Shown here: in pieces, positions 1 to 64,000 of the stretch
Layout of the letters: each line of letters starts with the position of its first letter
How positions within the stretch are numbered: the first letter of the stretch is position 1
Origin: a virus
IMG/VR virus record: IMGVR_UViG_3300044616_001452
Length of the DNA stretch: 64,000 nt
Reading direction: 5' to 3' (one strand)
Program-made: the position numbers and the translations under genes
Notes under the pieces: model-generated
The model's database searches: none
Told to the model about the DNA's origin: nothing
Seen by the model: the letters and a program-made list of their open reading frames with translations, nothing else

Positions 1-948
1 GCAACAACTAATGTTTTAGAAACTGGTGGAGGGGTTGTAACAAACGTTCAACGGGCAGCAGGTACGGAAACAGATCCATTGGAAAGAAGTCGAGCCACAG
101 CAATAGCGGCGGCTGGAGGTATACAAAAAATTGGAGGTTCTGTTGCAAATCTGGCCAAAACAGCCATTGCAGGAAACGGATCAAAAAGATATATCACAAG
201 CATTTTCCTATATGTTCCAGACACATTAAATGTTAACTATAATTCAACTTATGACGATATCAGTATCACTGATTCATTAGGTAAAGCCTATTTTATTGCG
301 CAGGCTGGTGCATCTTTGACAGACTTTGCTTTAGAAGGTTTGCGAGGAGGTTCGGCTTCAAACCTTGGAAATAAAATTTTAACCGATCCTGCATTAAGAT
401 ATATGGGATTGAATGCATTAGGAAATAAAGTCGGAATGTCAAATTTAGGTGATTTGGCATTACAAGGGGTGAATAAAGCTATAAACCCTCAACTTCAGGT
501 AATGTTTAGAGGTGTTGGATTTAGAACATTTCAGTTCGATTTTCTTTTAACACCGTATAACAAAAAAGAAGCAGACGATATTAAAAAAATAATACATCTT
601 TTTAAGTTTCATTCTGCACCTAGAATCTCAAAGGGGAACCAATATACAGGTCCCGAAAATGAAGCTGGTTATGGTATTGAAGGGCTTAATGGGGGATTCA
701 TACCAAACTCTCTAGGATCACCTTTTTTTGAAGTTCCTGAAACTTTTGAAATTGACTTTATGTACAAGGGAGCAAGAAATCCTAATGTAAATAGAATAGC
801 CGAGTCTGTTCTAACTTCAGTGAACGTTGATTATGCACCAACAGGTTGGGCAACACATAATGAAGGTGCACCGGTTCAAACTAGACTAACATTGCAGTTT
901 CAAGAAATACAAATCATCGATAAATCAAAAATTGTTGAAGGTTACTAA
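1..948 (+). CDS. gp48: Baseplate tail-tube cap protein (T4 gp48-like), 5'-truncated by window edge
   Basis: Frame is open from base 1. It carries the motifs LYVPDTLNVNY, INPQLQVMFRGVGFRTFQFDF, VLTSVNVDYAP and LTLQFQE typical of gp48, and lies directly upstream of gp53. Confidence 0.8.
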   Translation, partial: ATTNVLETGGGVVTNVQRAAGTETDPLERSRATAIAAAGGIQKIGGSVANLAKTAIAGNGSKRYITSIFLYVPDTLNVNYNSTYDDISITDSLGKAYFIAQAGASLTDFALEGLRGGSASNLGNKILTDPALRYMGLNALGNKVGMSNLGDLALQGVNKAINPQLQVMFRGVGFRTFQFDFLLTPYNKKEADDIKKIIHLFKFHSAPRISKGNQYTGPENEAGYGIEGLNGGFIPNSLGSPFFEVPETFEIDFMYKGARNPNVNRIAESVLTSVNVDYAPTGWATHNEGAPVQTRLTLQFQEIQIIDKSKIVEGY

Positions 949-1577
949 TGTTTTACTTCAATACACTACCAAAAATAATAACGCCAGACGAAAATGGTAA
1001 TTCAATATTACTTACAAATTTGGTAACGAGAGCCAGATTAATTGAACAATTACAAAATAATCCAATGCTCTTTTATGAATATGCAATTCAAGACGGTGAT
1101 ACTCCTGAAATAATTGCAGAAAAATATTATGGCGACCCGTTTCGTTATTGGATTATTTTGCTTTCAAATGAAATTTTTGACCCATTATGGGACTGGCCTC
1201 TGTCAGATCAAATGTTTTTACAGTACATTGATACGAAATATGCAACAGAAGCGGAAGACGCAGGGCAAACTCCTTTTGAATATACAAATACAACAATTTA
1301 CAAATATGAAAAAATAATCACTACAACAAACTCAGTATCAGGTGATGAAAATGTAGTAAAAGTATCTATCACACAAACACAGTACAATGCTCTTTCACCA
1401 TCTTCAACAACATTCAGTCTTCCCGATGGCACTTGTACAATAGATATCACAAAAGAACAAATTACTATTTTTGATTATGAATCCGATTTAAATCAGAGCA
1501 GAAGACAAATAAAAATACTAAACAATTCATATGTCGATGAAATGGAAAGAGTATTTAAAGATGTTATGGGGTCTTAA
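948..1577 (+). CDS. gp53: Baseplate wedge subunit with LysM-like motif (T4 gp53)
   Basis: MFYFNTLP start; YAIQDGDTPEIIAEKYYGDP..YWIILLSN..DWPL; C-terminal R.IKIL motif. Confidence 0.9.
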   Translation: MFYFNTLPKIITPDENGNSILLTNLVTRARLIEQLQNNPMLFYEYAIQDGDTPEIIAEKYYGDPFRYWIILLSNEIFDPLWDWPLSDQMFLQYIDTKYATEAEDAGQTPFEYTNTTIYKYEKIITTTNSVSGDENVVKVSITQTQYNALSPSSTTFSLPDGTCTIDITKEQITIFDYESDLNQSRRQIKILNNSYVDEMERVFKDVMGS

Positions 1578-1581
1578 TTAG

Positions 1582-2964
1582 ATGGCAAGTAATCAGATTG
1601 CAGAAAATCCTACTCCACAGTCAGTTGGCACTGGTGTTTTAAATCCAGACCAATTTATTCTGGAAGAATTACTTCTGTATACTGCAAATGATGTAACAGA
1701 TATTAAAAATATGATGGTAGAATTATCATATTATGAAGACATTGTAAATGGCTTTTGTAGTGGCAGTGTTCTTATTAAAGATGCCATTAAAATGATACCA
1801 AACTTAGGCATGTCAGGGTTTGAATACATCAAAGTAAATTTTAGAAAAACACAAAGAAATTCAAATAAATTTGTTTCTGTTAACAAATATTTTAGAATAT
1901 ACAGAGTGAGTGAAAGAGGCATTGTTAATTATGACACAGAATTATACACACTAAATTTTTGTACAGAAGAATTTTTCTTATCACAACAACTAAAAGTAAG
2001 TAAATCCTATCCCGGTAAAAAAATCAGTGATATCGTCACAGATATTCTTTTCAATGAACTACAAATAAAATCCGAATACATCAGAGTGCAGGAAACAAAT
2101 GGGCTTTATGATTTTGTAATACCCTATAAAAATCCATATGAAACAATTAAATGGTTGTCAAATTATGCTAGACCCATTGGAAAAGAAGGCGCCGATTTTC
2201 TCTTTTATGAAAATGCTGACGGAGTAAATTTCTTCTCTCTGCAAACAATTTTTAAACAGCAATCGTATAATAAATTTTCATACATTCCAAGAAATATAGG
2301 CACAGATTATCCTGAAATACAAAGAAATATAACAGGTATAAAATCGTATGTATTTTTAGATACCTTTGATTCTTTATACGGTGTAACGAAAGGTGTTTTT
2401 GCAAATAAATTAATTTCTGTTGATCCTCTGACAGGAACTTGGAGACAAACAGATTTCAATTTGAATGATTATTTAAAAAAGTCTCAAAACTTAAACAATT
2501 ACTCAATTGCACCACAAATAAAAAATAGAAAACGAAAACCTGTATATGAAGAATATTCATCCGTTTTGAAAATTGCTACTGGTAACTCAAGACAAAAATT
2601 TGCACAAGGTATAAATCCTTCTTCAGTTGCTAACGACATATACATTGAAGAATATTTACCAAAAAGAACAGCACAATTACCGCTTTCACATTATTCTAGA
2701 ATTAAATTATCACTTGCTGGTGATCCTAATATAACTGTTGGAATGATTATCGAAGTTTTTTTACCATCAACTGAAAGAGATGGTTTAACAAAAGGTGTGC
2801 TTGATGAATACAATTCTGGAAAATATATGGTTTCGGCTGTGCGTCACATTTTAGATAGCAATCAAAAATATGAAACTGTGGTTGAAGTTGTAAAAGACAC
2901 ATACAACAAAACAGTTAATAATTACAGAACATATAAACAATTAGAAGATGCTATCAGAGGCTAA
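1582..2964 (+). CDS. Baseplate hub protein (gp27/late-control-D-like)
   Basis: Lies between gp53 and gp5. ELSYYEDI, FLFYENADGVNFFSL, GDPNITVG and SGKYMVSAVRH are hub-like motifs. Confidence 0.65.
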   Translation: MASNQIAENPTPQSVGTGVLNPDQFILEELLLYTANDVTDIKNMMVELSYYEDIVNGFCSGSVLIKDAIKMIPNLGMSGFEYIKVNFRKTQRNSNKFVSVNKYFRIYRVSERGIVNYDTELYTLNFCTEEFFLSQQLKVSKSYPGKKISDIVTDILFNELQIKSEYIRVQETNGLYDFVIPYKNPYETIKWLSNYARPIGKEGADFLFYENADGVNFFSLQTIFKQQSYNKFSYIPRNIGTDYPEIQRNITGIKSYVFLDTFDSLYGVTKGVFANKLISVDPLTGTWRQTDFNLNDYLKKSQNLNNYSIAPQIKNRKRKPVYEEYSSVLKIATGNSRQKFAQGINPSSVANDIYIEEYLPKRTAQLPLSHYSRIKLSLAGDPNITVGMIIEVFLPSTERDGLTKGVLDEYNSGKYMVSAVRHILDSNQKYETVVEVVKDTYNKTVNNYRTYKQLEDAIRG

Positions 2965-2967
2965 AAT

Positions 2968-5703: not shown

Positions 5704-6099
5704 ATGGCACAGACACTTAAAAGAAGATACTCGGACATAGACTTCGCGTTCAGAAGAACGCCTGGTAAGAATGATATTGCTTTGAGTTATGATGAAATGG
5801 CTGTCATTAGGGCTGTCAGGTACCTCCTGTTAACGAAAAAATATGAGAGACCCTTTCAGTCAAATATTGGTTCTAGACTTGAGCAAATGCTTTTTGAACC
5901 TATTTCTTTCACTACTGCATCGACAATAAAAACGGAGATAGAGACTACGATTAGAACATATGAACCTAGGGTTACTCTAGCTCAGGTCACCGTGGTTGAA
6001 AACATTGATAATAACGCATATAGTGTCAGTTTGCTTTTTTACATAGGTAATAATGTAGAACCGACTCAGATAAATTTAATTCTTGAGAGGACAAGATAA
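5704..6099 (+). CDS. gp25: Baseplate wedge subunit gp25
   Basis: YSDIDFAF, ERPFQSNIGS..LFEP, YEPRV motifs. Confidence 0.92.
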   Translation: MAQTLKRRYSDIDFAFRRTPGKNDIALSYDEMAVIRAVRYLLLTKKYERPFQSNIGSRLEQMLFEPISFTTASTIKTEIETTIRTYEPRVTLAQVTVVENIDNNAYSVSLLFYIGNNVEPTQINLILERTR

Positions 6100-8177: not shown

Positions 8178-11100
8178 TGACAACAGATTTTGCAAAAAGA
8201 ATATCGCTAAAGGTAGCCGAACAGCTACCTGAATTTATCAGAAGTGAAACGAATTATCAAACATTCGTTGCATTCATTCAAGCTTACTATGAATGGATGG
8301 AAGAATACAATATTGCAAGTGGTAAAGAAGGTGCGATTAGAGGTTCACAGAACTTATTAAACTATAGAAATATTGATTTTATAAATCCGGGAGAAACATA
8401 TAATAAATTTATTGACTACTATGTCAATGACTTTTTACCTAATTTTCCAAAAGATGCATTATCAGATAAAGCAAAACTGGTAAAAATAGCAAAAGAATTA
8501 TATAACAAAAAGGGTACGCCCGCATCATACGAATTTCTATTCAGAGCATTATATAATTCAGATTCAGAAATATTTTTGACAAGAGAAGCGGTTTTCAAAG
8601 CCTCAGATGGTAAATGGTACGTATCGAAAAGTTTACGTCTTGCAAGTAATGATGAGCAATGGTTATCAACGGATAATTTAAGAATCTTTGGTAATACATC
8701 GAAATCATTTGCAACAATTGAAAGAGGGCTATACGTTGGAAATAGAATAGAACTTTACATATCAAACATTCAAAGATTGTTTGAATCGGGAGAATTGGTA
8801 ACAGTGGTCGATCAAAACAATCTCCCACTTTATTTTAAAGACAGTAAAATAGTACCAGAGGGCACCTCAGGTTCAACTACACTAACAGCAAAAATATTAG
8901 GTTCTATTTCATCGGTTAATATTAATCCTCAAAAGCGAGGGCAACTTTATAAAACAGGGGATCCTGTAATTTTTTATGGTGGATTAAATTCTACTGATGG
9001 TGTGGGGGCAATTGCATATGTAAATGAAGTTACATCCGGTTCTATACGAGCAGTTGATGTGATTGATGGTGGCTATGGTTATAGGGAGGACCCTAACACA
9101 TACATAAGATTTATTGGTGGTGGAGGTTCAGGTGCAATAGCAAATGTTACTACTGTAGATCCTGCTGGGCTAATAAATGTTAATTTTATTCCTACAGATT
9201 GGTTAGGTAATTATATGCGTTCAACAAGAATAGGAGGTTCATCACTTGTTGAATTTATCATTCGTGATTATTCTGCTAATGCAACAATAATAACAGGTAA
9301 TGTTGTCAGTACAACAGGTCTATCAACGGGTGACACTCTTAATATTGTAGGATCAAATACAAACTTAAATTTGAATGGTACATATACTGTAACTGTAGCC
9401 AATTCAAATTATTTTTTCATAAACAATTTAAATTCAACACTCACTGGTGTTTGGTCCGGTTTAGCAAATACTGGGCTTGCTTACAAAGGAACTGTAACTA
9501 ACTATGCTTTCTTACCTGCAAATACTGTTGCAACATTATATGCCAATTTAGCAAGCTCACTTTCTTTTGTAACTCTAGAAACTTATCCAATCGATACGAT
9601 AGAAGTTAACAATGGTGGAGGAGGTTTTACTTCTCTACCAACAGTTGAAGCGTTTGCATTATATGATACACTTGATCCAGAACCAAATCAAAATTTAAAA
9701 GTAAAAGGATTATTAGGAAATCTGGGTATTTTAGGTCCAATAGAAATTATTAAACCAGGAATTGGTTATTCAAATGGAGATAAAATAGTATTTACCGGTG
9801 GAACGGGTGTTGGTGCAAATGCAAATGTCACAGTTAATGTTGGAGGTTCAATAACATCGGTAGAATATTCATATTCGAACACAAGTTCACAAACGATAAC
9901 ATATCCAAAAGGTGGATTGGGTTATAGAAAAAGTAATTTACCGACTCTTTCAGTTGTAAAATCAGACGGTACACCAGCAAGCGGTAGTGGAGCCGAATTG
10001 TCCATCTCTGGTATATTAGGTGATAGCGCAGTTCTAGAAGGGACACCTGATGAAAGAGGTATCGGTGCAATTACTTCCTTCTTCATTGAAAATTATGGTG
10101 AAGATTATATTTCAGCACCAAACGTATCGCTTCGTGTTCGTGATATCGTTGTAAAAAATGTTTCTATCAATGACTTGGTTAAAACAGATGAAATTGTTTA
10201 TCAAGGTTCATCTTTACAGTCATCCGTTTTCAGAGCAAACGTGGCATCAATTAATCTTCTTGAATCGGATGGTAATCCCTTAGATTCAAAATATATTTTG
10301 AGAGTGTATAATTATACATCAAATACCAAAACAGACTTACAATTGAAAGTGACGGATAGATTAGAAGGATTACCAAATTTATATTTGGATCTCGTCACCA
10401 GTTATGAGACATTTGATCCATCAGGTTCACACATTTTCAAAAATGGTATACGAACATATGGTAATGGTGCTGCAATAGCAACAGCTAGATTCTTGAACGG
10501 CCTGATTGTCGGGCAAGGGCAATATTTAAATGACGATGGCTTTCCAAGTTCATTCCAAGTTCTAGAAAATGAGGACTATAATAGTTTTTCATATCAATTA
10601 ATTGTAGAAAAATCGTTCAGCGCATACAAAGAAATACTGTACAGTCTACTACATCCATCAGGAACAAAAGTAATACCAATTAATTTACTTAAAGCTAACA
10701 GTAAAATAGACACATCAGAAGAAGTACATTATTCAAATACACATACATTATATTACTATACAGGAAATGCAGGGACAACTGGCAATTTTTATGCATCATT
10801 TGATAAACCAAGTAATAACATTATAAAATTTATCGGGCTTTCAGGTGCAAATTTAAGCAATATAATGCCAGTTGGAACCACAATTTCTTTAACCTCACAA
10901 AATGGACCAAATGTAATATCTGAAATATATTCTGTCAATGATGTAAGTGGTACGGCTGTTATTAAAGATAATGTGTTCTTATCTTTTGCAAATGTTGCTA
11001 CAGCAAACGTTACTGTATCCAATAATAGAATAAATATATTATCATTCACAAATCAATATGATTTAATTAACAATGGTGAATATAGTAACAATCAAAATAA

Positions 11101-20683: not shown

Positions 20684-20911
20684 ATGTTTGTAAATATAAA
20701 AGATGGTAATTATTTACGTGATACAAACTCTATGGCACTGATCAACAATGATCAAAAGGCTAAGCACGAATATTATGAAAAAGCTAGATTATTGAAGTCT
20801 CAAAAGGAAGAAATAAATAACCTTAAAAATGATTTAACTTCTGTAAAAGAAGATGTAAAAGAATTAAAAAATCTAATCATACAATTATTAGGTAAAGAAA
20901 CAAATGGCTAA
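20684..20911 (+). CDS. Small coiled-coil protein
   Basis: [11 protein letters not shown] followed by heptads; usual neighbour of the VrlC-like gene. Confidence 0.7.
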
Positions 20912-23900
20912 TCAAATTCCTCCGCTTGGGCTTGCGAACACTTTTGGTGATTGGATCGTAACTACCAATAGTGTTCTTAAAGAAACAAATGATCTTGCTG
21001 CAAATAATTATACAAAAGATTCCGGTTCACTTATCATACAATCTTCTGGAACGGGCTTACAAGTTGCTAATGATGCAATTGTACAAGGTTCATTTCAAGT
21101 TTCTGGTACGGGTTCTAGTGCAACAATACAAAACAATTTAACAGTTACACAGGGTTCAATTAGAGCTTCGAACACTACAGCTTTAGGTTTGAGAATTGAT
21201 GGCGTTGCAAACATTGCAAACCTTCAAATTATTGGGTCGGGATTAGGTAATGATAATCAGGGTCCCGCACTCTACGTTGGAAACAATACAGTTTTGGTTG
21301 GAAACGTTGCACTGTCTAATACAATTACTGTTTCTGGTAATGCTAGAGTCTTAGGTGTTAATGCTAATTCTTACATTACTGCGCCTAGTGTTTATGCAAC
21401 AAGTATTTTTTCTGGTGCTATCACGGCTAATACACAACTTAATGTTGGTGCAGCTAATGTTGTAAATGGAATTGACGCCGCTTTGGCTAGAATTGGTAAC
21501 ATTGTCGCTAACACAGGATTGATTGGTGGTGCAATCACCGCTAATACACAGCTTAATGTTGGAGCCGCTAACGTTGTTAATGGAATTGATGCTGGCTCCG
21601 CTAGAATTGGTAACATTGTTGCTAACACAGGATTGATTGGTGGTGCAATCACCGCTAATACACAGCTTAATGTTGGAGCCGCTAACGTTGTTAATGGAAT
21701 TGATGCTGGCTCCGCTAGAATTGGTAACATTGTTGCTAACACTAGTTTAATCGGAGGAACATTAACGGCTAATACACAGCTTAATGTTGGAGCCGCTAAC
21801 GTTGTTAATGGAATTGATGCTGGCTCCGCTAGAATTGGTAACATTATAGCAAATACATCTTTAGTAGGCGGTACAATCACTGCCAATACGCAATTAAACG
21901 TTGGAGCCGCTAACGTTGTTAATGGAATTGATGCTGGCTCCGCTAGAATTGGTAACATTATAGCAAATACAAGTTTGATTGGTGGAACATTAACAGCTAA
22001 TACTCAATTAAATGTTGGTGATGCTAACGTTGTGAATAGACTGGATGCATCTTCAGCCAGAATTGGTAACATTGTAGCAAATACATCTTTAGTTGGTGGT
22101 ACAATCACCGCTAATACACAACTTAATGTTGGTGCAGCTAATGTTGTAAATGGAATTGACGCCGCTTTGGCTAGAATTGGTAACATTGTCGCTAACACAG
22201 GATTGATTGGTGGTGCAATCACCGCTAATACACAGCTTAATGTTGGAGCAGCTAATGTTATAAACGGTATTGACGCCGCATCGGCTAGAATCGGTAGCAT
22301 TGTAGCAAATACAAGTTTAATTGGTGGCACTATCACTGCCAATACAACACTAAGTGGTGGTTCCGCTAACATTATCAATGCAATTAATGCCGCATCAGCC
22401 AATATTGTTGGTTTGATGAATGCTAATACAGGTAATGTTGGAACATTAAGTGCTGTCACAACAGTCGTTGCTGGTACAATCACCGCTAATACAACACTAA
22501 GTGGTGGTTCCGCTAACATTATCAATGCAATTAATGCCGCATCAGCCAATATTGTTGGTTTGATGAATGCTAATACCGCTAATGTAGGCACACTATCAGC
22601 CGTAACAACAGTTGTTGCTGGTACAATCACCGCTAATACAACACTAAGTGGTGGTTCCGCTAACATTATCAATGCAATTAATGCCGCATCAGCCAATATA
22701 GTCGGCATAGCCAATGCTAATACTGCTAATGTAGGCACATTAAGTGCTGTCACAACAGTCGTTGCTGGTACAATCACCGCTAATACAACACTAAGTGGTG
22801 GTTCCGCTAACATTATCAATGCAATTAATGCCGCATCAGCCAATATTGTTGGTTTGATGAATGCTAATACAGGTAATGTTGGAACATTATCAGCCGTAAC
22901 AACAGTTATTGGTGGAACAATTACTGCAAATACAATATTATCAGGTGGTTCCGCTAACATTATCAATGCAATTAATGCCGCTTCAGCCAATATTGTTGGT
23001 ATAGCTAATGCAAATACTGGAAATGTTGGCACATTAAGTGCTGTCACAACAGTTATTGGTGGAACAATTACTGCTAACACAATACTAAGTGGTGATTCAG
23101 CCAACATTGTTACTATAATGAATGCGAATACCGGAAATGTTGGAACATTATCAGCCGTAACAACAGTTATTGGTGGAACAATTACTGCTAACACAATACT
23201 AAGTGGTGGTTCAGCCAATATTTTTGGTATAGCTAATGCCAATACAGTTAACGTTGGCACATTAAGTGCAGTAACAAGAGTAATTGGTGGAACAATTACT
23301 GCTAATACACAACTTAATGTTGGTGCAGCTAATGTTATAAACGGTATTGATGCTGGTTCAGCCAGAATTGGTAACATAGTTGCTAACACTAATTTAATGG
23401 CTGGAAGCATTAATGCCAATAGTTATCTAACCATTGCAAATTCTCTTTATTCTGTAACAAGAAATAATGCAGTTACGGTCACATCATATACAGGAAATGG
23501 AACAACTTTTGTAACTGGAGTTGCCACAAACCATGGGTTGGCTAATGGTGAATTAATTTTTATTAATGGCGCTGCTGTCACACAAGCTCCATTAAATGGA
23601 GTGTGGGCTGTTGTTAACACCGGTGTCAATTCAATCATGTTTTCGATTGCTCCAGGAACACTTCCTGTTGGCACAAATACAACTGCTATAGGTTCAACAA
23701 CAGTAGCTCGTTCATTTAACTATGTCACTTCATTAAATTCCAATAGTTACATTACAACAACAGAAGCACAAGCAACAAGGTTACAAGCAGGAAATATTGT
23801 TGCTAACACCAGTTTAATTGGTGGTACAATCACCGCTAATACAACACTAAGTGGTGGTTCCGCTAACATTATCAATGCAATTAATGCCGCATCAGCCAAT

Positions 23901-26738
23901 ATTGTTGGTATAGCCAATGCAAATACAGTTAATGTTGGAACATTATCAGCCGTAACAACAGTTATTGGTGGAACAATTACTGCTAATACAACACTAAGTG
24001 GTGGTTCCGCTAACATTATCAATGCAATTAATGCTGCTTCAGCCAATATTGTTGGTATAGCCAATGCAAATACAGTTAATGTTGGAACATTATCAGCCGT
24101 AACAACAGTTATTGGTGAAACAATTACTGCAAATACAATATTATCAGGTGGTTCCGCTAACATTATCAATGCAATTAATGCCGCTTCAGCCAATATTGTT
24201 GGTATAGCCAATGCAAATACAGTTAATGTTGGAACATTATCAGCCGTAACTCAAGTCATAGCGGGTTCTATAACATCGAATGCTGGTATAACAGCAGCAT
24301 CAGCGTCGATTGGAGCAGGCGGGTTAACAGTATCAGGTAATTTTATAGTTACCGGAACAACAGTTAATGATTCTAATACAATAGTTCTTAGAACTTCATC
24401 TCCTCTCGCTCAATCTGATAAAGCATATTTCATGATTAATAGGGGCGAAAGAGCTACGGGCGCAACAGGTCCAACTGGTCCAAGAGCAAATGCTGAGATT
24501 AGATGGGATAATGCATCCAATACATGGCAAATAAGAGATGTTGCAGGCGCCGATTTCAGTGTATATCATAATATTGTTACTGAAAAATATACTGCAAACA
24601 CAACGAATGCGGGTATCGTACAACTTAATGATACGACAACAAGTACAAGCACCACTTTAGCACCAACAGCAGCAGCGGTTAATACTTTAAGACTTGCAGT
24701 TAATTCTTCTGTTACATCAAATGTTCTAAATTCTGGTGCAGCAGTAGTTGTTGCTCAGAATTTTGTGACAGCAGTTGATGATTCTGATCCAGGCAACGGT
24801 AACTTTAAGTTCAACAATGCCACTATTAGTTCGGCAACTTTTGCATACATGGATAACTTGGACACTTATGGAAATAGTATCACAGGTATTCTTGCAGCAT
24901 ATGCAGACTCAAATGGAGTTACAAAAGGGCATCTAAGATTCTCCGTATTTGGTGCGTCAACAACAAAATACGCAGTCTTCGCCGTGACAGGTTCAACAGC
25001 AGCATCAGGTTATTATAAAGTTGCATTGTCACATGTTTCAAGTGCAGGAACATTCGCTGCTTCTGATCTTGTTATGGTTCAATTTAGTAGAGCAGGTAAT
25101 ATTGGACCACAAGGACCAATCGGACCAATTGGACCACAAGGACCAATCGGACCAATTGGACCACAAGGACCAATCGGACCACAAGGACCAATCGGACCAA
25201 TCGGTCCACAAGGACCAATAGGACCAATCGGTCCACAAGGACCAATCGGACCACAAGGACCAATCGGACCAATTGGACCACAAGGACCAATCGGACCAAT
25301 CGGACCACAAGGACCAATCGGACCAATCGGACCACAAGGACCAATCGGACCACAAGGACCAATAGGACCAATTGGACCACAAGGACCAATCGGACCAATT
25401 GGACCACAAGGACCAATCGGACCAATCGGACCACAAGGACCAATCGGTCCACAAGGACCAATAGGACCACTTGGGCCAATAGGACCAATAGGACCACTTG
25501 GACCAATAGGACCAATAGGTCCACAAGGACCAATAGGACCAATAGGACCAGTAGGTACTTTAGATGCAAATAAAAATTTTGTTGTAATTGGTAGTGTTTG
25601 CGATCTAACAGCCACAGGTTGCCATAATACATTTATTGGGGATCTTGCTGGTCGCCGCACAACATTTGGAATATCAAACTTTTTCGTAGGTCGAGAGGCT
25701 GGTGCTTGCAACACCACTGGAGCCGATAACGTCTTCATTGGATTATGCGCTGGTGCTTGCAACATCACTGGATTCAATAACGTCTTCATTGGAAAATGTT
25801 CTGGAAGACAAAACGAAACGGGTAGTGCCAACATCTTTTTTGGAACTTATACTGGTTGTTTAAACACCGGTGGAAGCAATAACGTCTTAATTGGATCTCA
25901 AGCTGGTCGCTGCAATGGTACAGGGAGCGGTAATAATATCATTGGAAGCGGAGCGGGTAAGTCTAATACCAGTGGAAGCAATAACGTCTTCCTTGGTTCA
26001 AACGCCGGTAACTTTAATACCACCGCGGCGGACAACATCTTCATTGGTCGATGTGCTGGATTTAATAACACAACTGCTGGGTATAATGTCTTCATTGGCG
26101 GCTATGCCGGTTGCGGCAACACCACTGGATGCAGAAACATCGCTATTGGCAATCTTGCCGGTAGAGACAACACATTTGGCAACTGTAACTTATTTATTGG
26201 TGTATATGCCGGTCTTGTAAACACCACTGGTTGCAACAATACCTTCATAGGTCGAGCTGCGGGTGCCAGCAATACAAGAGGTTGTAATAATATTTTCGTA
26301 GGTTGTTACAGTGGCTCAGGCCTTAATGGGCTTGCGAACATAACAACTGAATCAGATCGTATTATTATGGGGAATAGCTCTCATACATGCGCGCAAATAC
26401 AAGTTGCATGGACAGCCGTTTCTGATATTCGTGATAAGTGCATATTTGGTAAAGTACCTCACGGTAAAGGATTCTTGAATCAAGTTAATCCTATCATATT
26501 CAGTTTCAAAGACCGTGAGACTGGTCAACTTACTGATGAAAAGAAACGTTACGGTTTCTCTGCTCAAGAAATCCTTGAACTTGAAGGTGATGAACCTGTT
26601 CTAGTAGGAAATGATAATCCAGAAAAACTTGGGCTAACGGCAGAATACATCATACCAATTCTTGTAAATGCTATTAATGAACTTTCAGCCGAACTAGAAA
26701 TCGTTAAATCGGAGATAGAAGAACTAAAAAGGAAATAA
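20904..26738 (+). CDS. Long tail fibre: repeat shaft, collagen segment, Cys-rich beta repeats, C-terminal intramolecular chaperone (peptidase S74-like)
   Basis: [13 protein letters not shown]-terminus; 38- and 49-aa repeats; (GPI/GPQ)n; [30 protein letters not shown] is the chaperone signature. Confidence 0.85.
21423..22334 (+). repeat. 114-bp (38-aa) tandem repeat, 8 copies
   Basis: Unit [38 protein letters not shown]; starts at 21423, 21537 and onward; one more copy near 23298. Confidence 0.92.
22335..24270 (+). repeat. 147-bp (49-aa) tandem repeat in two blocks (about 22335-23297, including two shortened units, and about 23832-24270)
   Basis: Unit [49 protein letters not shown]; starts at 22335, 22482, 22629, 22776 and 22923. 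Confidence 0.9.
25103..25555 (+). repeat. Collagen-like (G-P-I/G-P-Q)n coding repeat
   Basis: About 50 uninterrupted GGW CCA NNN triplets. Confidence 0.95.
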
Positions 26739-27355: not shown

Positions 27356-29092
27356 ATGGCTGGAGCAACCAATACAATCATTCAGATTTTACGTTCGAAC
27401 ACTACTGCATATCCTACCACTTTAGAGCCAGGTGAACAGGCGTATTCATACGTATCACAAAGACTTTTCATTGGTAATACTGATAATTCTGTTATTACAA
27501 TTGGCGGTAAATATTATGTTGATCTAATTGATAATGCGACTGCATCCAATACGGGCAACACTCTTGTTCGCCGTGATAATGCCGGCAATGTTGCGTTCAA
27601 AATGGTTTCTGTTGCAGACAATGCATCACAGTCTACAGATGTTGTCAATAAAAATTATCTAGATTCCAGAATCAATGCACTGTCATCAAATACAATTTAT
27701 GATGGTGCACCTATTGGTACAAATGGTTATTCTAATGTTCATGTAAATTCCGCAGTCGGTGGTGGGCAAGTTATTGTTGTTGCAAATAATACAACAGTTG
27801 CAACATTTACCAAAACAACTGCAACATTTGTACAAGATGTTGGTATTACAGGAAATCTTGTAGTCAGAGGCACAACATCTTATACGAATGTACAATCACT
27901 TCTTGTTTCAAACAATGACATTGTACTGAATGCAAACGCAGCAGGTTATCCATTAATCAATGCATACATTACAGTCAATCGTGGTGCAGCAGATAATTCT
28001 GCAATTATTTGGAATGAGGCTACAGATAGATGGCAAGTTGATAATGCCATAGGAACAAATTATGATATTGTTGACACAGGTGGTGGGCAATCGATTGGTG
28101 GTACAACAACACTTAATGCTGCATCAGTAACAAATGGTTTACATGCAGGCACATTAGAAGTTTCTGGGCATACAAATGTTGCATCACTGACAGCAAATAG
28201 CACAATTATTACCAATCAGTTGATCGTTGCATCAAACGTACAACTTGCGAACGTAGCAAACGTTGCGTATTACGGTAACGTAGTTGATGCGGCCACACCA
28301 GTGATTGGCAAACATTACATTATGATATCTGATGGCAATTCAGGTAACAACAGATTTCATGCAAATTCGTTACTTGCTTTTGATACCTCAAACACCACAT
28401 TTGCTGTTGGTTATTCTGCTTATACACCATTGCCTAATACATTGTACCAAGCAACTGGATCATCAATAGCATATATTCAAAACAATATACAAAATATAAA
28501 CAATGAGGGTTCTGGCGACTGGGTTGCTACAGCCGATAATGGTGATGACACAAAAGGTTACATCGATATGGGTATTGCCGGAGGCGCCTACACATATGAT
28601 GGTTTCCATAAACCTAATGACGGTTACTTGTTTGTTGCAGGCAACACTGGGCAAGGGCTAGGCAACTTATGGATTGGTACTGCTGTATCCAACACATTAA
28701 ACCAAACGATAGGTTCAATATACTTTCATTTAGGTTATGAGTCTTCATCAAATATAGTTGGTTACATTAGCCGTCAAGGCAATAATCCAGCAAACAATGC
28801 TACATGGGCAATAAACAAAACCACTGGCGCAAATCACAATTATTCACTTGATGTAAATGGTGCAGCGAATGTTTCTTCACTTTTCATAAACGGAACACAA
28901 GTTCTTGGGCAATCATTCGCACTTCCAGTTTCATTTGGTGGCACAGGGTTAACTTCTGTAACGGCAAATGCAGTTTTATTTGGTTCAGGATCAGGCACTT
29001 TAGGTGTCACAAATGCGCCAACAGCCGGGCAAGTTTTACAATATAGAACAGATGGTGTTAAATTTGGTGGGCTAGATGGAGGAACATTCTAA
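27356..29092 (+). CDS. Fibre protein with Mtd-N-like N-terminus, ending LDGGTF
   Basis: TIIQILRS..LEPGEQAYS..LFIG..IGGKYY; LPVSFGGTG repeat. Confidence 0.7.
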   Translation: MAGATNTIIQILRSNTTAYPTTLEPGEQAYSYVSQRLFIGNTDNSVITIGGKYYVDLIDNATASNTGNTLVRRDNAGNVAFKMVSVADNASQSTDVVNKNYLDSRINALSSNTIYDGAPIGTNGYSNVHVNSAVGGGQVIVVANNTTVATFTKTTATFVQDVGITGNLVVRGTTSYTNVQSLLVSNNDIVLNANAAGYPLINAYITVNRGAADNSAIIWNEATDRWQVDNAIGTNYDIVDTGGGQSIGGTTTLNAASVTNGLHAGTLEVSGHTNVASLTANSTIITNQLIVASNVQLANVANVAYYGNVVDAATPVIGKHYIMISDGNSGNNRFHANSLLAFDTSNTTFAVGYSAYTPLPNTLYQATGSSIAYIQNNIQNINNEGSGDWVATADNGDDTKGYIDMGIAGGAYTYDGFHKPNDGYLFVAGNTGQGLGNLWIGTAVSNTLNQTIGSIYFHLGYESSSNIVGYISRQGNNPANNATWAINKTTGANHNYSLDVNGAANVSSLFINGTQVLGQSFALPVSFGGTGLTSVTANAVLFGSGSGTLGVTNAPTAGQVLQYRTDGVKFGGLDGGTF

Positions 29093-32734: not shown

Positions 32735-32992
32735 ATGGAATATAGATTTCAAATTTTAACAAAAACTGGTATTATAGAATCTTTAGTGCAAAGTGAATCA
32801 GATTTTTCTTGTGCACCTTTTGGTTATGTTCCATACCGAGTTATATCGACATGCGAATGTGAACCACAAGTAATAGATGATTTTTGGAATTGTGTGGATA
32901 TTGTGCTTCAGAATAATAATGCAACAACTGACGATTATATAAGAGCCGTCAGAGCATATGTAGGTGATACAATTTACGGAGAACATGAATAA
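32735..32992 (+). CDS. Hypothetical protein
   Basis: Fills the operon gap exactly, abutting both neighbours. Confidence 0.55.
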   Translation: MEYRFQILTKTGIIESLVQSESDFSCAPFGYVPYRVISTCECEPQVIDDFWNCVDIVLQNNNATTDDYIRAVRAYVGDTIYGEHE

Positions 32993-35160
32993 TGGGTTTA
33001 GCGCATTCTTCAAGTATAGTCACTAATGGATTGGTTTTTTACTATGATATGAATAATATTAAAAAATCATGGAATGGAAAACCCGTAACAAACTATTATA
33101 CGAATGGACATTTTGCTGGTGGTCAACATGTAACCCAGGCTGCTAATGGTTCTTATTCTAATCCAACAAACACTGTAGTAGAAATGGCTAATCCTGGAGA
33201 CAGTCCATGGTGCTTACAAACAACTTCTGTTGGAGGATCTCCGTACACTGAATATGAATTATATTTGACAAATACGTTGACTACTAATACAACTTACTGT
33301 CTAAATTGTTGGTACGCTTTAACACCAGATTGGGATGGAAATAATACTGTATTTCATTCGAGATGGTTTAATCCTGATGGCAGTGAACAAGGCTCGTTAG
33401 GTGGTACAAGTTGGACTGTGGATCAAACACAAGTAATCGGTGGAATTACATGGAATAGAGTGTACACCACATTCACAACTGGAGCAACCACTAATGGGGC
33501 ACATAGTTGGTATGCAGGTTATCCTGCACAAAATACTAAAGGATATAGGTATTTTACAAATTTTCAAATTGAAGTGGGTTCAACACCCAGTAGATTTTCC
33601 AATGGCACAAGATATGCGAATTCAAACCTAGAATCTTCACCAAGTTATCCTTCATGGAATACACTCTCAGGGTCAAGTTATAGTGGTGGCACTCTAACAT
33701 TCACAGCAGGCTCTTACAACAGTAAAAGCGGATGGGACCTATACAAAACCTACAGTGGATTATCCACAGGTACAAATTATACATGGTCTGCTTTTGTTAA
33801 ATTAGGAACAGCAAGTAATCTAATTATTACAATGAATAACACTTCAGCATGGAACACTGGTCCATCGACTGTTGTGGCTGGTTTATCTAGCACGGATTGG
33901 ACAAGAGTGTATATCACCGGCACCACGAACACAGGATCATTTAATTTACATTTAGGTGCATCTTTCAATACAGAAGTGGCATCAACAGTTCAAAGTGCCG
34001 GCACAGTATTCATACAGGATGTTAGATTAGTTTTATCACAATCACAGACTGCTATTGCAGATATGATGGATAAAAATACGATTAACGCATCAAGTCTGAC
34101 ATATAACTCAGATGGAACTTTTAGTTTCAGTGGTAGTAATTCATTGACCATTTCAGCTAATCCAACAAGTTTTGATTTTAATAGTCAACAAACAATTATT
34201 TTATGGATGACAAATAAATCCACATCTGCAACTAGAAGAAATCCTTATAATCAAGCATATGCAGGTGGAGGAACAATCACACATGAAAACGATGCAGGAT
34301 TTAATTATTATTATGGAACAGGTGGAGGCGACAATGACCCATATACAAGTTTATATTCCTCTTTCAATGTGATTCAAGGTGAAAGAGCCATGATTGCTCT
34401 AACAAGAAACACTTCAACCACATCATGGTACAAGAATGGTGTGTTTAGTAATTCGCATGGTAATCCATACGGCACGGTTGTAACAGGAACAAATGCTATT
34501 ACAATTGGCTCCGGTTATACAACAGGTTTTGTTGGTGAAATACATGCAGTACAATTATATACTAGAGCACTTTCTGCTTCTGAGATTGCACAAAATTATT
34601 TTGCACTTTCAGAACGTTATTTTGGTTATCAGAGAATGAATTACGTTGCTTCTGGTAATGTGACATTAACTAATAACGGAACAGAAGAAGTTACAATGTT
34701 TAAAAATTCTGACAACAATAGTTGGAACGGAGAAGTTAGATCAACCGAAATGTTTACTGCACCCTGCACTATAGAATTTAGTAAAGATGCGGCCGATGGA
34801 GATAACGGAGCAAGTTATGCAATGATTGGATGGAATACTGATCCAACCGCAGATTCTAGTTATACTTCTCTAGACTATGCTTCATATCCATATCGCAAAG
34901 ATAATTATACGGTCTATCATAATGGAAATCAAGTAAATTTTTCAGGAACATGGGAATCTTCAAAACGATTTTATGTAGTTTACGATACAGACGGATATAT
35001 CCGTCATTACAACGGAAATAAATTGTTATACATCGTAAACTATGGAACAGGAAATAAAGTTTATTTTGACTCCTCATTTTATTCTGTTAATTCAACATTC
35101 GGTGGATTCTCAAACGTAAAAGTGTGTAGACGTTCATGGAATGGTTATACGTATGTTTAA
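32992..35160 (+). CDS. Multi-domain carbohydrate-binding/LamG (concanavalin A-like) virion protein
   Basis: IVTNGLVFYYD N-terminus; CBM-like beta-sandwiches (FQIEVGSTPSRF); LamG GEIHAVQLYTRALSASEIAQNY. Confidence 0.75.
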   Translation: MGLAHSSSIVTNGLVFYYDMNNIKKSWNGKPVTNYYTNGHFAGGQHVTQAANGSYSNPTNTVVEMANPGDSPWCLQTTSVGGSPYTEYELYLTNTLTTNTTYCLNCWYALTPDWDGNNTVFHSRWFNPDGSEQGSLGGTSWTVDQTQVIGGITWNRVYTTFTTGATTNGAHSWYAGYPAQNTKGYRYFTNFQIEVGSTPSRFSNGTRYANSNLESSPSYPSWNTLSGSSYSGGTLTFTAGSYNSKSGWDLYKTYSGLSTGTNYTWSAFVKLGTASNLIITMNNTSAWNTGPSTVVAGLSSTDWTRVYITGTTNTGSFNLHLGASFNTEVASTVQSAGTVFIQDVRLVLSQSQTAIADMMDKNTINASSLTYNSDGTFSFSGSNSLTISANPTSFDFNSQQTIILWMTNKSTSATRRNPYNQAYAGGGTITHENDAGFNYYYGTGGGDNDPYTSLYSSFNVIQGERAMIALTRNTSTTSWYKNGVFSNSHGNPYGTVVTGTNAITIGSGYTTGFVGEIHAVQLYTRALSASEIAQNYFALSERYFGYQRMNYVASGNVTLTNNGTEEVTMFKNSDNNSWNGEVRSTEMFTAPCTIEFSKDAADGDNGASYAMIGWNTDPTADSSYTSLDYASYPYRKDNYTVYHNGNQVNFSGTWESSKRFYVVYDTDGYIRHYNGNKLLYIVNYGTGNKVYFDSSFYSVNSTFGGFSNVKVCRRSWNGYTYV

Positions 35161-46900: not shown

Positions 46901-47772
46901 TGGCTACCAATCTATATTTTAATAACTTTAATTCAAGCCCAGAACAAAGACTTGTTGAGGACTTGATGATCGAAACCATTAAAATTAATGGTGTCGATTG
47001 CTATTACATTCCAAACATAAATGAAGCGGCTAGGGATCTTCTTTATGGTGAAGATCCACTTAAAAAATTTACTGCTGCTTATCCGCTTGAACTCTATATT
47101 ACAAATGTAGACGGTTACGAAGGCGAAAGAGAGTTCTTCTCGAAATTTGGTTTAGAAATTCGTAACAACATGTCGGTAATTATATCAAAAAGATCATTTG
47201 CTCGTTGGGTTCCACAGACATATCACCGCCCAAGAGAGGGTGATTTAATTTACATACCCTTCTTTGCTCAGACTGGTGAAATGTATGAGATTAAATATGT
47301 GAATTTCTCAGAAGCATTCTATGTTTTGGGTAACAAGTATCCATATTTCTATAAACTTGAACTAGAGAAATTCAAATACTCACAAGAAACTATCGATGTT
47401 GGCATTCCAATTATCGATGAATTGGTTTATCAGGATGCTTACTCAATAGAATTAACAATAAACAAAGCAACTGGCAACGGAAACTTTATACGTGGCGAAT
47501 CTATACATAACACATCGAATACAGTGTACGGAACTGTGACAGATTGGAATGCAAACACAGGCATTATAAAAGTAACCGATCTGTATGGAACTTTTGCTAA
47601 CAGTATGCTTCTGCGTGGAAATACAAGTAATGCTTCCTACACAACGACAGCAGCACCAGATGAATTAAAAGATAATCAAATACGAGAAATGTACGATAAC
47701 AAAGTAATTCAAAACGAAGCTGATGTTATCATAGACACAACAGAAACAAATCCTTTTGGTAGAATATCATGA
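46900..47772 (+). CDS. gp14: Neck/head completion protein gp14
   Basis: EQRLVEDLMIETIKINGVDCYYIP, FSKFGLEI, RPREGDLIY, ETNPFG. Confidence 0.93.
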   Translation: MATNLYFNNFNSSPEQRLVEDLMIETIKINGVDCYYIPNINEAARDLLYGEDPLKKFTAAYPLELYITNVDGYEGEREFFSKFGLEIRNNMSVIISKRSFARWVPQTYHRPREGDLIYIPFFAQTGEMYEIKYVNFSEAFYVLGNKYPYFYKLELEKFKYSQETIDVGIPIIDELVYQDAYSIELTINKATGNGNFIRGESIHNTSNTVYGTVTDWNANTGIIKVTDLYGTFANSMLLRGNTSNASYTTTAAPDELKDNQIREMYDNKVIQNEADVIIDTTETNPFGRIS

Positions 47773-57666: not shown

Positions 57667-57694
57667 TTCCACATATAACCAAGGAGATTTCCAA

Positions 57695-58924: not shown

Positions 58925-60274
58925 ATGTACCTATCTGAAGAAATTCAATCAAAATGGAAACCAGTTCTTGAGCATCCAGAGCTGGAAGCAATTAAGGATC
59001 CATATCGTAAAGCCGTCACTGCAATGGTTCTTGAGAACCAGTCACAGGCAATGGCATCTGATCGCGCTCAAATGGGCATGCTTACAGAAACAACAAGCGT
59101 AGGACCAACAAACGTTACTGGTTCTGGCGTTCAGAACTTTGACCCTATTCTTATTAGCCTGGTTCGCCGTGCGCTTCCTAACCTGATCGCTTATGACGTT
59201 GCTGGCGTTCAGCCAATGACAGGTCCCACTGGTCTTATTTTTGCAATGCGCGCACGTTATGGTCAGAACATGACTTCTGGTTCAGAAGCCTTCTTCAATG
59301 AAGCTAATACACAGTTCTCTGGTATCGGTTCAGATACAAACCGTTTCGGTTTCGCCAACAACACAACTGGTGACACAATCACCAATCCAGTTGGTAACGG
59401 TTTTACAACTGCTAATACCTTCACAACTGGTATCGGTATGCCAACTGCTACTGCTGAATTCTTGGGTTCTGAAAGCAACACAGCATTTGGTCAAATGGCA
59501 TTCTCAATTGAGAAAGTTACTGTTACTGCACAAAGCCGTGCGCTGAAAGCTGAATACTCACTAGAACTTGCACAAGACCTGAAAGCAATTCACGGGCTTG
59601 ATGCTGAGACAGAACTTTCAAACATTCTGTCAACAGAAATTCTTGCTGAGATCAACCGTGAAGTTATCCGTACAATCTACACTGTTGCTAAGAACGGTGC
59701 TCAGTATGGTACGACAACCGCTGGTGTATTTGACCTTGACACAGATTCAAATGGTCGTTGGTCAGTTGAGCGTTTCAAAGGTCTGATTTTCCAGATCGAA
59801 CGTGATGCTAACGTTATTGCTAAAGAAACTCGTCGTGGTAAAGGTAACGTTCTGATCGTTTCTTCAGACGTTGCTTCTGCAATGGCCATGGCTGGTGTTC
59901 TTCAGTACACACCTGCTCTGTCAGCCGATCTACAAGTTGATGACACTGGTAACACTTTTGCAGGTCTTCTGCATGGTCGTATCAAGGTTTACATCGATCC
60001 ATACTTCGGTGGCTATACAAGCAATCAAGAGCTTGTTACAATCGGTTATAAGGGTTCTTCACCTTATGACGCTGGTCTGTTCTACTGCCCATACGTTCCT
60101 CTCCAGATGGTTCGTGCGGTTGATCAGTATACCTTCCAGCCAAAGATTGGTTTCAAGACTCGTTACGGCATGGTAGCAAACCCATTTGCTGGTGGTCCTA
60201 ACGCTGATCTGGGTCAGTTGTACTCTAAGCGTAACACATACTACCGCATCTTCCGTGTTGCTAACCTGATGTAA
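58925..60274 (+). CDS. gp23: Major capsid protein gp23
   Basis: GVQPMTGPTGLIFAMR, SRALKAEYSLELAQDLKAIHGLDAETEL, FQPKIGFKTRYG. Confidence 0.98.
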   Translation: MYLSEEIQSKWKPVLEHPELEAIKDPYRKAVTAMVLENQSQAMASDRAQMGMLTETTSVGPTNVTGSGVQNFDPILISLVRRALPNLIAYDVAGVQPMTGPTGLIFAMRARYGQNMTSGSEAFFNEANTQFSGIGSDTNRFGFANNTTGDTITNPVGNGFTTANTFTTGIGMPTATAEFLGSESNTAFGQMAFSIEKVTVTAQSRALKAEYSLELAQDLKAIHGLDAETELSNILSTEILAEINREVIRTIYTVAKNGAQYGTTTAGVFDLDTDSNGRWSVERFKGLIFQIERDANVIAKETRRGKGNVLIVSSDVASAMAMAGVLQYTPALSADLQVDDTGNTFAGLLHGRIKVYIDPYFGGYTSNQELVTIGYKGSSPYDAGLFYCPYVPLQMVRAVDQYTFQPKIGFKTRYGMVANPFAGGPNADLGQLYSKRNTYYRIFRVANLM

Positions 60275-60341: not shown

Positions 60342-60344
60342 ATT

Positions 60345-60352
60345 CCTAAATA
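60345..60352 (+). promoter_or_regulatory. Late promoter variant (CCTAAATA) for gp3
   Basis: Directly after the terminator, before an AGGAGG RBS. Confidence 0.55.
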
Positions 60353-60370
60353 GTAGATAAGGAGGAAACT

Positions 60371-60853: not shown

Positions 60854-60862
60854 TGTTAAAAT
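60834..60862 (+). promoter_or_regulatory. Sigma70-type early/middle promoter for uvsY-uvsW
   Basis: TTGACA (60834-39), 17-nt spacer, TAAAAT (60857-62) with an extended -10 TG. Confidence 0.75.
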
Positions 60863-60885
60863 AAAGGTTTATAAATGGATTAGTC

Positions 60886-62845: not shown

Positions 62846-63188
62846 TGGTGACCAAATCATTTGCTATGCCGAAGAGGAAAAAGAACAGATTGTTGTTAAA
62901 AAGCCCCTTCAATTCTTTCTAAAAATTGATAGAAGTGGTGCGCATAATATTTCAATGGACTTTTGGTTACCCTACCCAGTCACTAAATCAAATACTGCTT
63001 CTATTAAACGGGATCAGATTATTGCTGTGCTTGATCCTTCTGATGACTTTGAAGAATACTATGAGAATGCATTAGATGCTCTTGAGAAATCTAGAGAAAG
63101 TGATTCATCTTTTGAAGATGAAAATGAAGATAAGTTGAAAGTATTACTGGAGGCACTCCAGATACCTAAGGAAAGATTTATTAATTAA
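62814..63188 (+). CDS. Hypothetical protein (possible Sm-like fold) between uvsW and gp55
   Basis: VIKLYNGDQII..WLPY pattern; usual position in this phage group. Confidence 0.6.
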   Translation: MERVQVIKLYNGDQIICYAEEEKEQIVVKKPLQFFLKIDRSGAHNISMDFWLPYPVTKSNTASIKRDQIIAVLDPSDDFEEYYENALDALEKSRESDSSFEDENEDKLKVLLEALQIPKERFIN

Positions 63189-63246
63189 CATGCAGAGGGT
63201 ACATAGTGGAGTGTAGACCTTTGTCAAGTGGAAATCAATACTTATT

Positions 63247-63795
63247 ATGGTGAACAATATGACAAATACCAAAAAACATTACATAAACAATGCTGATTTT
63301 TGCAAAGCATTGGTCGATTACAAAGAAGCGGTAGCTCTTGCAAAAAAAGAGAGACAACCAAAACCTATTATTCCAAATTACATTGGTGAGTGTTTCATGA
63401 AGATTGCTGAAGGGCTTTCTCACAAACCAAACTTCATCAACTATACCTATCGTGATGAAATGATCGCAGATGGTATTGAAAACTGTCTGATGTATTTTGA
63501 AAACTTTGACCCTCAAAAATCCAATAACGCATTTGCCTATTTTACTCAAATCATATATTATGCTTTTCTCAGGAGAATACAGAAAGAGAAAAAACAACTC
63601 TATGTCAAATACAAATCAACTGAAAATTTTGGTATTCTAGATGAGTCTGAACTCATGGGTTTCGATGAAATTAATTCCAAACCATTTGAACTGTACGACA
63701 ATATATCAGAGTTTATTGAAAATTTCGAAGAGACCAAAAAGAAAAAGAAAATCGTGAAAAAAGAAAAGGGTATTGAAAAATTTCTTGAAGACTAA
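63247..63795 (+). CDS. gp55: Late-transcription sigma factor gp55
   Basis: HYINNADF, YIGECFMKIAEGLSHKPNFINYTYRDEMIADGIENC, AFAYFTQIIYYAFLRRIQKEKKQ. The start may be ATG 63259. Confidence 0.96.
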   Translation: MVNNMTNTKKHYINNADFCKALVDYKEAVALAKKERQPKPIIPNYIGECFMKIAEGLSHKPNFINYTYRDEMIADGIENCLMYFENFDPQKSNNAFAYFTQIIYYAFLRRIQKEKKQLYVKYKSTENFGILDESELMGFDEINSKPFELYDNISEFIENFEETKKKKKIVKKEKGIEKFLED

Positions 63796-63797
63796 TT

Positions 63798-64000
63798 ATG
63801 AAAATAGCATTGATAACTGACCAGCACTTCGGTGCAAGAAACGATTCACTTCATTTCCTAGATTTCTATGAAAAATTTTATAATCTTTTTTTCTTAGAAA
63901 TCGATGATAGAGGTATCGACACCGTTGTAATATTGGGAGACACATTCGACCGTCGCAAGTATGTAAACTTTTATACCTTGCAGAGGTCAAAGAAAATGTT
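63798..64000 (+). CDS. gp47: Recombination endonuclease subunit gp47 (Mre11/SbcD-like), 3'-truncated
   Basis: Manual translation MKIALITDQHFGARNDS...VILGDTFDRRKYVNF shows the DxH and GD metallophosphoesterase motifs. Confidence 0.92.
   Translation, partial: MKIALITDQHFGARNDSLHFLDFYEKFYNLFFLEIDDRGIDTVVILGDTFDRRKYVNFYTLQRSKKM

Follow-up and report, generated by a model that had tools for sequence, protein, structure and literature searches.

The stretch of viral DNA analysed here (IMG/VR record IMGVR_UViG_3300044616_001452, positions 1-64000, referred to below as the window) carries the structural module of a T4-like phage, with all long open reading frames (ORFs) on the plus strand. It also carries a sequence bias, the subject of this report: at silent positions, GGAC[A/G/T] has largely given way to GGGC[A/G/T], and a preliminary description made by eye had seen in this the footprint of a DNA modification or patch-repair system. 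The phage is a cyanophage-like T4 relative with a G+C content of 37%. Its gp23 gene shares only ~75% DNA identity with cyanophage gp23, and its terminase ~55% protein identity with those of the nearest cultured phages, while 20 lake-water metagenome runs contain 98-100% of the 31-mers sampled from positions 54000-63000. The phage genome was tiled from public contigs identical or near-identical to the window, found through 12 protein look-ups. This tiling reached 151.5 kb at first and was later extended to a closed circle of ~168 kb, and the coding part used for counts comprises ~140 kb. Throughout, D (or [D]) stands for A/G/T and H for A/C/T.

Glycine codons preceding C[AGT] in the window are GGA 5, GGC 6, GGG 99 and GGT 34 times, compared with 101, 15, 11 and 148 times (same order) before CC and 463, 215, 53 and 876 times in the remaining contexts. 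The replacement of GGA by GGG before CAN, CTN and CGN codons is far stronger than the impression gained by eye, with a GGG:GGA ratio of 99:5 before C[AGT] and 53:463 elsewhere (odds ratio (OR) 173, p 2e-68). GGACC and GGTCC are spared, as had been proposed, since the GGG share before CC is 10% and equals background. GGT and GGC are also displaced before C[AGT], and the effect is not a plain exchange of GGA for GGG. The reverse-complement context is shifted in the manner first described for Ser-Pro codon pairs, where AGC CCN is preferred over AGT CCN: before CC, AGC:AGT is 14:1, TGC:TGT 2:0 and CGC:CGT 2:2, and the pooled HGC:HGT ratio is 18:3 before CC versus 161:461 elsewhere (OR 17, p 3e-8). 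This shift opposes a general avoidance of C-ending codons ahead of C. When 461 combinations of codon family and next dinucleotide were scanned, GG[G/A]CA, GG[G/A]CT, GG[G/A]CG and AG[C/T]CC all ranked in the top six. In a within-gene shuffle of synonymous codons, GGGC was observed 154 times versus 78 expected (z 11), and GGGCA 85 times versus 30 expected. The sites occupy synonymous third positions and are scattered over almost every gene of the window, so repeats are not their cause. All 16 coordinates cited in the preliminary description read as claimed there, and the following sites illustrate the footprint and its survivors:

10511..10522, plus strand: tandem GGG CAA GGG CAA, an example of the footprint
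28649..28660, plus strand: GGG CAA GGG CTA, an example of the footprint
46936..46941, plus strand: AGC CCA (Ser-Pro), the reverse-complement form; others at 3376, 3610, 4855 and 57974
5731..5736, plus strand: TCG GAC, a surviving GGAC in which the A is non-synonymous; others at 10571 and 46957

The same pattern was found across the ~140 kb of coding sequence, where GGG:GGA is 115:7 before CA, 67:9 before CT and 29:0 before CG but 15:111 before CC. The families that report on the complementary strand, counted before CC, give AGC:AGT 23:5, TGC:TGT 23:4 and CGC:CGT 13:2 but GGC:GGT 18:170. The four affected codon families reduce to a single pentamer and its complement, in that GGAC[A/G/T]→GGGC[A/G/T] is the same change as [A/C/T]GTCC→[A/C/T]GCCC. 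Palindromic GGWCC stands at background level, and bases outside the five-base motif have no influence. Specificity for the prefix is high, with an OR of ~90-170 for GG, ~3 for AG, GC and CG, and ~1 for the remaining prefixes. The bias is present round the entire genome, early genes included, and genome-wide codon-pair statistics at synonymous and non-synonymous positions, run as the preliminary description had proposed, upheld it. A weaker trend from GCAC to GCGC, also suspected by eye, stood in part. On the coding strand it is specific to the lineage (OR 2-3.3 versus 0.5-0.6 in relatives, z ~5), and GCAC[A/T]→GCGC[A/T] is a significant minor effect when set against unbiased relatives; its reverse complement is merely faint.

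The process acts on DNA and not on translation, because non-coding DNA shifts as well, non-synonymous products of the change are enriched and the signal is symmetric under reverse complementation. Non-coding DNA was defined strictly, as sequence with no ORF of at least 35 codons in any frame and with tRNAs masked. GGGC[D]:GGAC[D] in such DNA is 15:6 in the biased clade compared with 5:23 in unbiased genomes (OR 11.5, p 3e-4), and the clade's sites divide between the strands as 9/6 for GGGC[D] and 2/4 for GGAC[D]. A first, looser test of non-coding DNA was discarded because unannotated genes contaminated it (15 of its 17 hits lay on the plus strand). Relative to unbiased genomes, non-synonymous products are enriched in the motif context for Asp→Gly (G|GGC|D over G|GAC|D, z 3.9), Ser→Pro (nHG|CCC over nHG|TCC, z 3.5), Thr→Ala (nGG|GCD over nGG|ACD, z 2.9) and Val→Ala (H|GCC|C over H|GTC|C, z 1.4), z values that are inflated by the ancestry that genomes G005-G007 share with the tiled genome. 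When the tiled genome alone is compared with the unbiased genome G001 alone, two of these ratios shift ~1.5-fold, with z estimated at roughly 1.5 and 1.7. Ortholog-based tests, in which sites are few, gave 0 of 30 for Asp→Gly and 4 of 26 for Thr→Ala (versus 3.4%). Polymorphisms among close relatives fall on only six motif sites, too few to polarise.

These data also bear on a translational origin, in which GGA-C[AGT] and AGT/TGT/CGT-CCN would be poorly decoded codon pairs. The in-frame signal is indeed the strongest, as codon-pair selection would predict, but such selection would be confined to the coding frame, with no strand symmetry and no effect on non-coding DNA, and this is not what was found. 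The four affected codon families all trace to a single 5-mer and its exact reverse complement, non-coding DNA is shifted, non-synonymous products are enriched, ordinary codon-pair effects come nowhere near an OR above 100, and gp23, the most highly expressed gene, shuns the supposedly optimal GGG pair. We consider codon-pair selection very improbable.

The route by which the motif disappears shows that the process is directional. Unbiased relatives hold 45, 26 and 28 GGAC[D] sites per 64 kb in frames 1, 2 and 3, whereas the window holds 5, 26 and 29. The 55 residual sites in frames 2 and 3 confirm the preliminary description, in which GGAC survived at places where changing the A would be non-synonymous, with the amendment that partial conversion is measurable there as well. 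Of the 26 frame-2 sites, 20 are TGG-ACD, for which no silent change is possible, but all 29 frame-3 sites could be removed silently by GAC→GAT. This escape is left unused, as had been claimed. GAC:GAT following a G-ending codon is 29:48 compared with 195:591 otherwise in the window, and 66:139 compared with 442:1462 genome-wide; GAC is, if anything, commoner there. Depletion is therefore not spread equally over the silent routes, and only the A-to-G route is used. As a positive control, the complete sister genomes G001, G009 and G010 avoid GATC by all three silent routes, namely GAT→GAC before C (OR 0.18), ATC→ATT after nnG (OR 0.07; ATC:ATT 48:1236) and GGA→GGT before TC (OR 0.48). Avoidance of a restriction site depletes it by all silent routes and in all frames, as GATC is depleted in these three genomes and GGAC[D] in the window is not. 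The claim of a directional process at the DNA level, and not of site avoidance, is supported alike by the three further codon families that report on the complementary strand, the route analysis, the non-coding DNA, the non-synonymous footprints and the GATC control.

Avoidance of GGAC[A/G/T] as a restriction or nuclease site is refuted by this analysis. The lineage does shun other sites (CTGCAG, AGATCT, AGCT and GGCC), but the window retains 55 GGAC[D] sites, exactly as dense as in relatives, and neither of the silent escapes, GAC→GAT and nnG→nnA, is used, whereas GATC avoidance takes every route. Among the shunned sites, CTGCAG (the PstI site) occurs 0 times in the window versus 15 expected and 0 times across ~294 kb of clade genomes, and it is absent from all biased and intermediate genomes. 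AGATCT occurs 0 times in the window versus 8 expected, and depletion extends to AGCT, GGCC and TGGCCA. Depletion of the CTGCAG and AGATCT type is classic palindrome avoidance, distinct from the GGAC signal.

A sequencing or assembly artefact, such as methylation-dependent miscalling of A as G, is likewise refuted. The same sequence or bias is found in independent assemblies from JGI, ENA (k141-named contigs), NCBI and Logan, built from Illumina data, and Logan contigs, compared as contigs, match the window identically over 5.2 and 2.9 kb; the phage is absent from the raw-read runs X21-X23. The bias respects the reading frame, and the independent assemblies agree with the 20 lake runs and with diverged members of the clade.

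Among 80 lake relatives found through terminase, the bias occurs only in those at least 87% identical, and in the terminase tree the biased taxa are monophyletic and form one supported clade (100/99). A second sample, drawn through DNA polymerase, repeats the pattern, and the two halves of the signal occur together: HGC:HGT before CC is 20:2, 11:0 and 9:0 in contigs L205, L207 and L212, compared with 0-3:2-10 in the others. The corresponding ratios in diverged members of the clade are 33:3 (G006), 17:0 (G007) and 12:0 (G005), and the bias is common to clade members diverged to 66-88% amino-acid identity. It is absent in S-RIM12, S-PM2 and P-SSM2. The bias is graded in strength: the OR is ~1 in G001, G009 and G010, 3.9 in G008, 7.9 in G002, 14.7 in G004, 25 in G007 and 62 in G006, and it reaches 89 for the tiled genome and 281 for G005. 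In basal G004, GGA before C[D] is depleted except in two mosaic tail-fibre genes, and the replacement is mostly GGT. G002 and G008 show an evenly scattered, intermediate excess of GGG before C[AGT] and a weak reverse-complement signal (OR 2.2 and 1.6); in their lineages the process may have less force or a more recent start.

GATC avoidance fades along the same series of genomes in which the GGGC footprint grows, and it is scarcely present in the window's clade. These opposite trends suggest a shift of host or of restriction environment. Between the window and its relative L015, GGG before C[D] is conserved at 14 of 16 sites, though other glycine third positions are saturated. Such conservation and the distribution among relatives point to a persistent, time-integrating pressure whose onset was no later than the base of the clade and may have coincided with a change of host.

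Individual genes of the window differ in how much of the footprint they carry:

58925..60274, plus strand: gp23, the major capsid gene; before C[AGT], GGT 9, GGG 1 (at 59594) and GGA 0
31982..35160, plus strand: tail-fibre-region genes with almost no footprint; before C[AGT], GGA 2, GGG 1 and GGT 3, and one AGT CCA
20904..26738, plus strand: a Gly-Pro-rich structural gene that looks collagen-like; similar genes at 29626-31980 and 38109-40508

The GGG at 59594 is the only one in gp23, as the preliminary description had it, and GGT is used otherwise. Strong codon selection in this gene overrides the drift to GGG while GGA is still absent, and the competition between the two is visible. Some close relatives read GGA-CT at site 60074 of gp23. 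The genes at 31982-35160 have no homologue in the unbiased genome G001. Outside the window, a minus-strand island that adjoins the polymerase (L093:11163-16261) also shows little footprint, and it is polymorphic and partly missing in some near-identical contigs (L093 versus L094/L095). Both regions are probably recent imports that have so far escaped conversion. Most of the 275 Gly-Pro codon pairs in the window lie in the three Gly-Pro-rich genes, as do most of the 249 GGA/GGT-CCN pairs, and these pairs account for the very high counts of GGACC and GGTCC; from their sequences, all three look collagen-like.

What has to be explained is a direction-specific A:T→G:C conversion at the third base of GGAC[A/G/T] that acts on DNA in this phage lineage. 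The reading that we favour, to which we give a probability of about 45%, is that the footprint is driven by sequence-specific correction of T:G to C:G of the very-short-patch type. Vsr is a T:G repair endonuclease (PMC2715241). Recombination heteroduplexes and replication errors would supply the T:G mismatches, and a nickase or glycosylase of the very-short-patch type would act on T:G within the motif, with resolution always to C:G. In a heavily recombining T4-like phage, such correction would work as a strong biased gene conversion. Purifying selection would confine its completion to silent sites, and codon selection would oppose it as well. We infer that the driver is the correction of mismatches and not mutagenesis specific to the motif. 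The enzyme may be encoded by the host, because neither a methylase nor a Vsr gene could be recognised in the phage, and because the signal rises as GATC avoidance is lost and CTGCAG is absent.

A search for the enzyme within the phage was negative. Pfam annotations of the genes called on the ~168-kb circle include no C5, N4, N6 or Dam DNA methyltransferase, no Vsr (PF03852), no uracil-DNA or helix-hairpin-helix mismatch glycosylase, and no base-hypermodification genes (hydroxymethylase, DpdA/Que, Mom or related transferases); a PF00145 search of five related records was also negative. The methyltransferase domains that do occur in the phage are of sugar or small-molecule types. A weak dNMP-kinase-like match is the sole hint toward base hypermodification, and nucleotide metabolism is ordinary, with dCMP deaminase, ThyX and NrdAB. 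Pfam, PHROGs and PADLOC scans of the unknown proteins returned nothing relevant to DNA repair, and DUF6445 has no relative with a solved structure. Of the original proposal that a methylase acts together with Vsr-like repair, what holds is thus a one-way footprint of the T:G→C:G type on both strands; the methylase, Vsr or base-modification gene was not found by Pfam in the tiled phage genome.

Gene content was compared with that of the unbiased complete genomes, from which ~50 ORFs of this phage are absent. Of the two best phyletic matches among these ORFs, one is a heme oxidative N-demethylase-like protein (L092:19266-20153, E 0.023 to 5LTE), encoded beside the tRNA array, which occurs in the tiled genome, G006 and G007 and is absent from four complete relatives. 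Such correlation between gene and trait carries no weight, because the clade is monophyletic and the trait has a single origin. The other, a 110-aa protein, was set aside as unlikely to be a DNA enzyme, as its N-terminal stretch, judged by eye, looks hydrophobic and membrane-spanning. A deaminase adjoining the tRNA array was tried as a TadA-like adenine deaminase and rejected, its best PDB matches (4p9c and 1vq2) both being deposited as deoxycytidylate deaminase. The phage also encodes a DruA-domain protein (Druantia DUF4338; L092:5405-6778, E 9e-21 in PADLOC) and a Tad3-family protein (Pfam PF25185; L323:7975-8472).

A pstS gene lies ~55 kb past the end of the window (L099:16427-17434). The PstS protein of the phage is 72-78% identical to those of freshwater Comamonadaceae (Limnohabitans, Hydrogenophaga, Acidovorax and Polaromonas), and judging by this identity the host is probably a freshwater betaproteobacterium of the Comamonadaceae (56-65% G+C) and not a cyanobacterium. 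Vsr occurs in two of five Comamonadaceae genomes, and a host-encoded copy is possible.

Several observations weigh against very-short-patch-type correction. Beyond the negative Pfam result for Vsr, DNA methyltransferases and mismatch glycosylases across the whole tiled genome, ~1 Mb of Comamonadaceae DNA around pstS (from Limnohabitans, Hydrogenophaga, Acidovorax, Polaromonas and others) shows an OR of merely 1.3-2.3, and the exemption of GGACC/GGTCC is not accounted for by such correction. The displacement of GGT and GGC requires either a sink, in which T→A is followed by A→G, or an advantage of G over all other bases; it is compatible with a sink, although by a rough comparison of rates in the window and L015 an extra advantage of G may contribute. 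When unbiased genomes are the reference, the remaining silent routes to the product motif show shifts of 1.7-3.9-fold, so that selection for GGGC[D], or GC-biased conversion of a broader kind, may make a small contribution to the footprint. Finally, a repair bias and a mutational hotspot fit the same data.

Motif-specific mutagenesis is the next reading in line, and we regard it as possible though somewhat unlikely. Its source could be a replication hotspot of the lineage's own polymerase, such as C misinserted by dislocation opposite the A of a GGAC template, or a chemically altered A or T at the motif that miscodes (through sequence-specific adenine deamination, N6-oxidation or a modified base). 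Directionality, strand symmetry and the non-coding and non-synonymous footprints are accounted for equally well by mutagenesis. The phage replicates with its own polymerase, and a strength that is graded and heritable among relatives would suit an evolving property of a polymerase or enzyme. Clade-specific genes of unassigned role exist, the heme oxidative N-demethylase-like gene among them, but shared descent explains such genes equally well. A polymerase hotspot is rarely so discrete as this motif, with its 5 bp and an effect of ~100-fold for GG, at most 3-fold for one-base variants and none for GGACC, and the ordinary dCMP deaminase and ThyX, with no known hypermodification genes, speak against a modified base.

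Positive selection for GGGC[A/G/T] as a functional DNA signal, in recombination, packaging or self-recognition, would account for the displacement of GGT and GGC by GGG, and other routes to the motif do move in the expected direction: nn[G/A] before GGC-D has an OR of 1.8 versus 0.46 in unbiased genomes, and GGC/GGT after nnG 1.08 versus 0.65. Their effect, though, falls short of that of the A-to-G route by a factor of 25-100, and GGG or AGG before GCD is not enriched (OR 0.95 and 1.3). The motif is found on either strand with no preferred orientation, and basal G004 swaps GGA mostly for GGT, which does not create it. Selection of this kind is therefore quite improbable as the main cause.

An enzyme of novel type with a 5-bp specificity, acting on the A:T of GGAC[A/G/T] and carried by the lineage or its host, is an unlikely source of the footprint; it could be a T:G nickase or glycosylase that needs no methylase, or a DNA adenine-directed editor working by deamination or N6-oxidation. 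We know of no sequence-specific DNA adenine-directed enzyme that causes A:T→G:C change in this way. If such an enzyme does act here, it would be a natural sequence-specific A:T→G:C converter, powerful enough to have changed over 90% of the sites at which the change is permissible in a genome of 168 kb.

To our knowledge, sequence-specific one-way base conversion in bacteria is essentially confined to Dcm/Vsr repair. E. coli Vsr corrects T:G in Dcm-site contexts and was discovered through marker effects in crosses of phage lambda. A skew in the oligonucleotide counts of E. coli has been attributed to it, with CTAG and CTWGG depleted and CCWGG enriched, a footprint of modest size. The phage footprint resembles this system in its fixed 5-bp context, in its one-way change from T:G to C:G, in the enrichment of the product with depletion of the T-containing variant and in the weaker action on one-base variants; Vsr, too, acts on phage heteroduplexes, as in the lambda crosses. 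It differs in that the motif, which is asymmetric, matches no known methylase site, in that palindromic GGWCC is exempt, in that no methyltransferase or Vsr gene was detected in the phage and the candidate host family lacks a comparable footprint, and in an effect of about two orders of magnitude, far above that in E. coli.

Other known processes share single features with the footprint. In the depletion of TC motifs of animal viruses by APOBEC3-type enzymes, a motif is likewise lost by the enzyme's own route, mostly at silent sites and in particular lineages, but that change is C-to-T by known eukaryotic host deaminases, whereas the change here is A:T→G:C. Restriction-site avoidance in phages also skews short motifs differently in related phages; it takes any silent route in every frame, whereas GGAC[D] is lost by one route only and leaves 55 sites. 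GC-biased gene conversion favours G:C alleles regardless of coding, resembles selection and scales with recombination, but in its known forms has no pentanucleotide specificity. Literature searches found no description of a footprint such as this one. Footprints of context-specific, one-way repair or editing are known in kind; what sets this one apart is its unusually large effect.

In this clade of phages a ~100-fold 5-mer footprint has altered non-coding DNA as well as synonymous sites, and even some amino acids, which cautions that processes at the DNA level can dominate the codon-pair statistics of phages. Identification of the agent would reveal either a new kind of activity, mismatch-correcting or base-editing, whose specificity is unusual in being asymmetric, or else a first clear example of host repair of the very-short-patch type that shapes the genome of a virulent phage through biased gene conversion. 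As a heritable marker that integrates over time, the footprint separates resident from recently imported genes and could be used to date how long a gene has resided in the genome. Together with the restriction-avoidance profiles, it tracks an apparent shift of host in uncultured lake phages.

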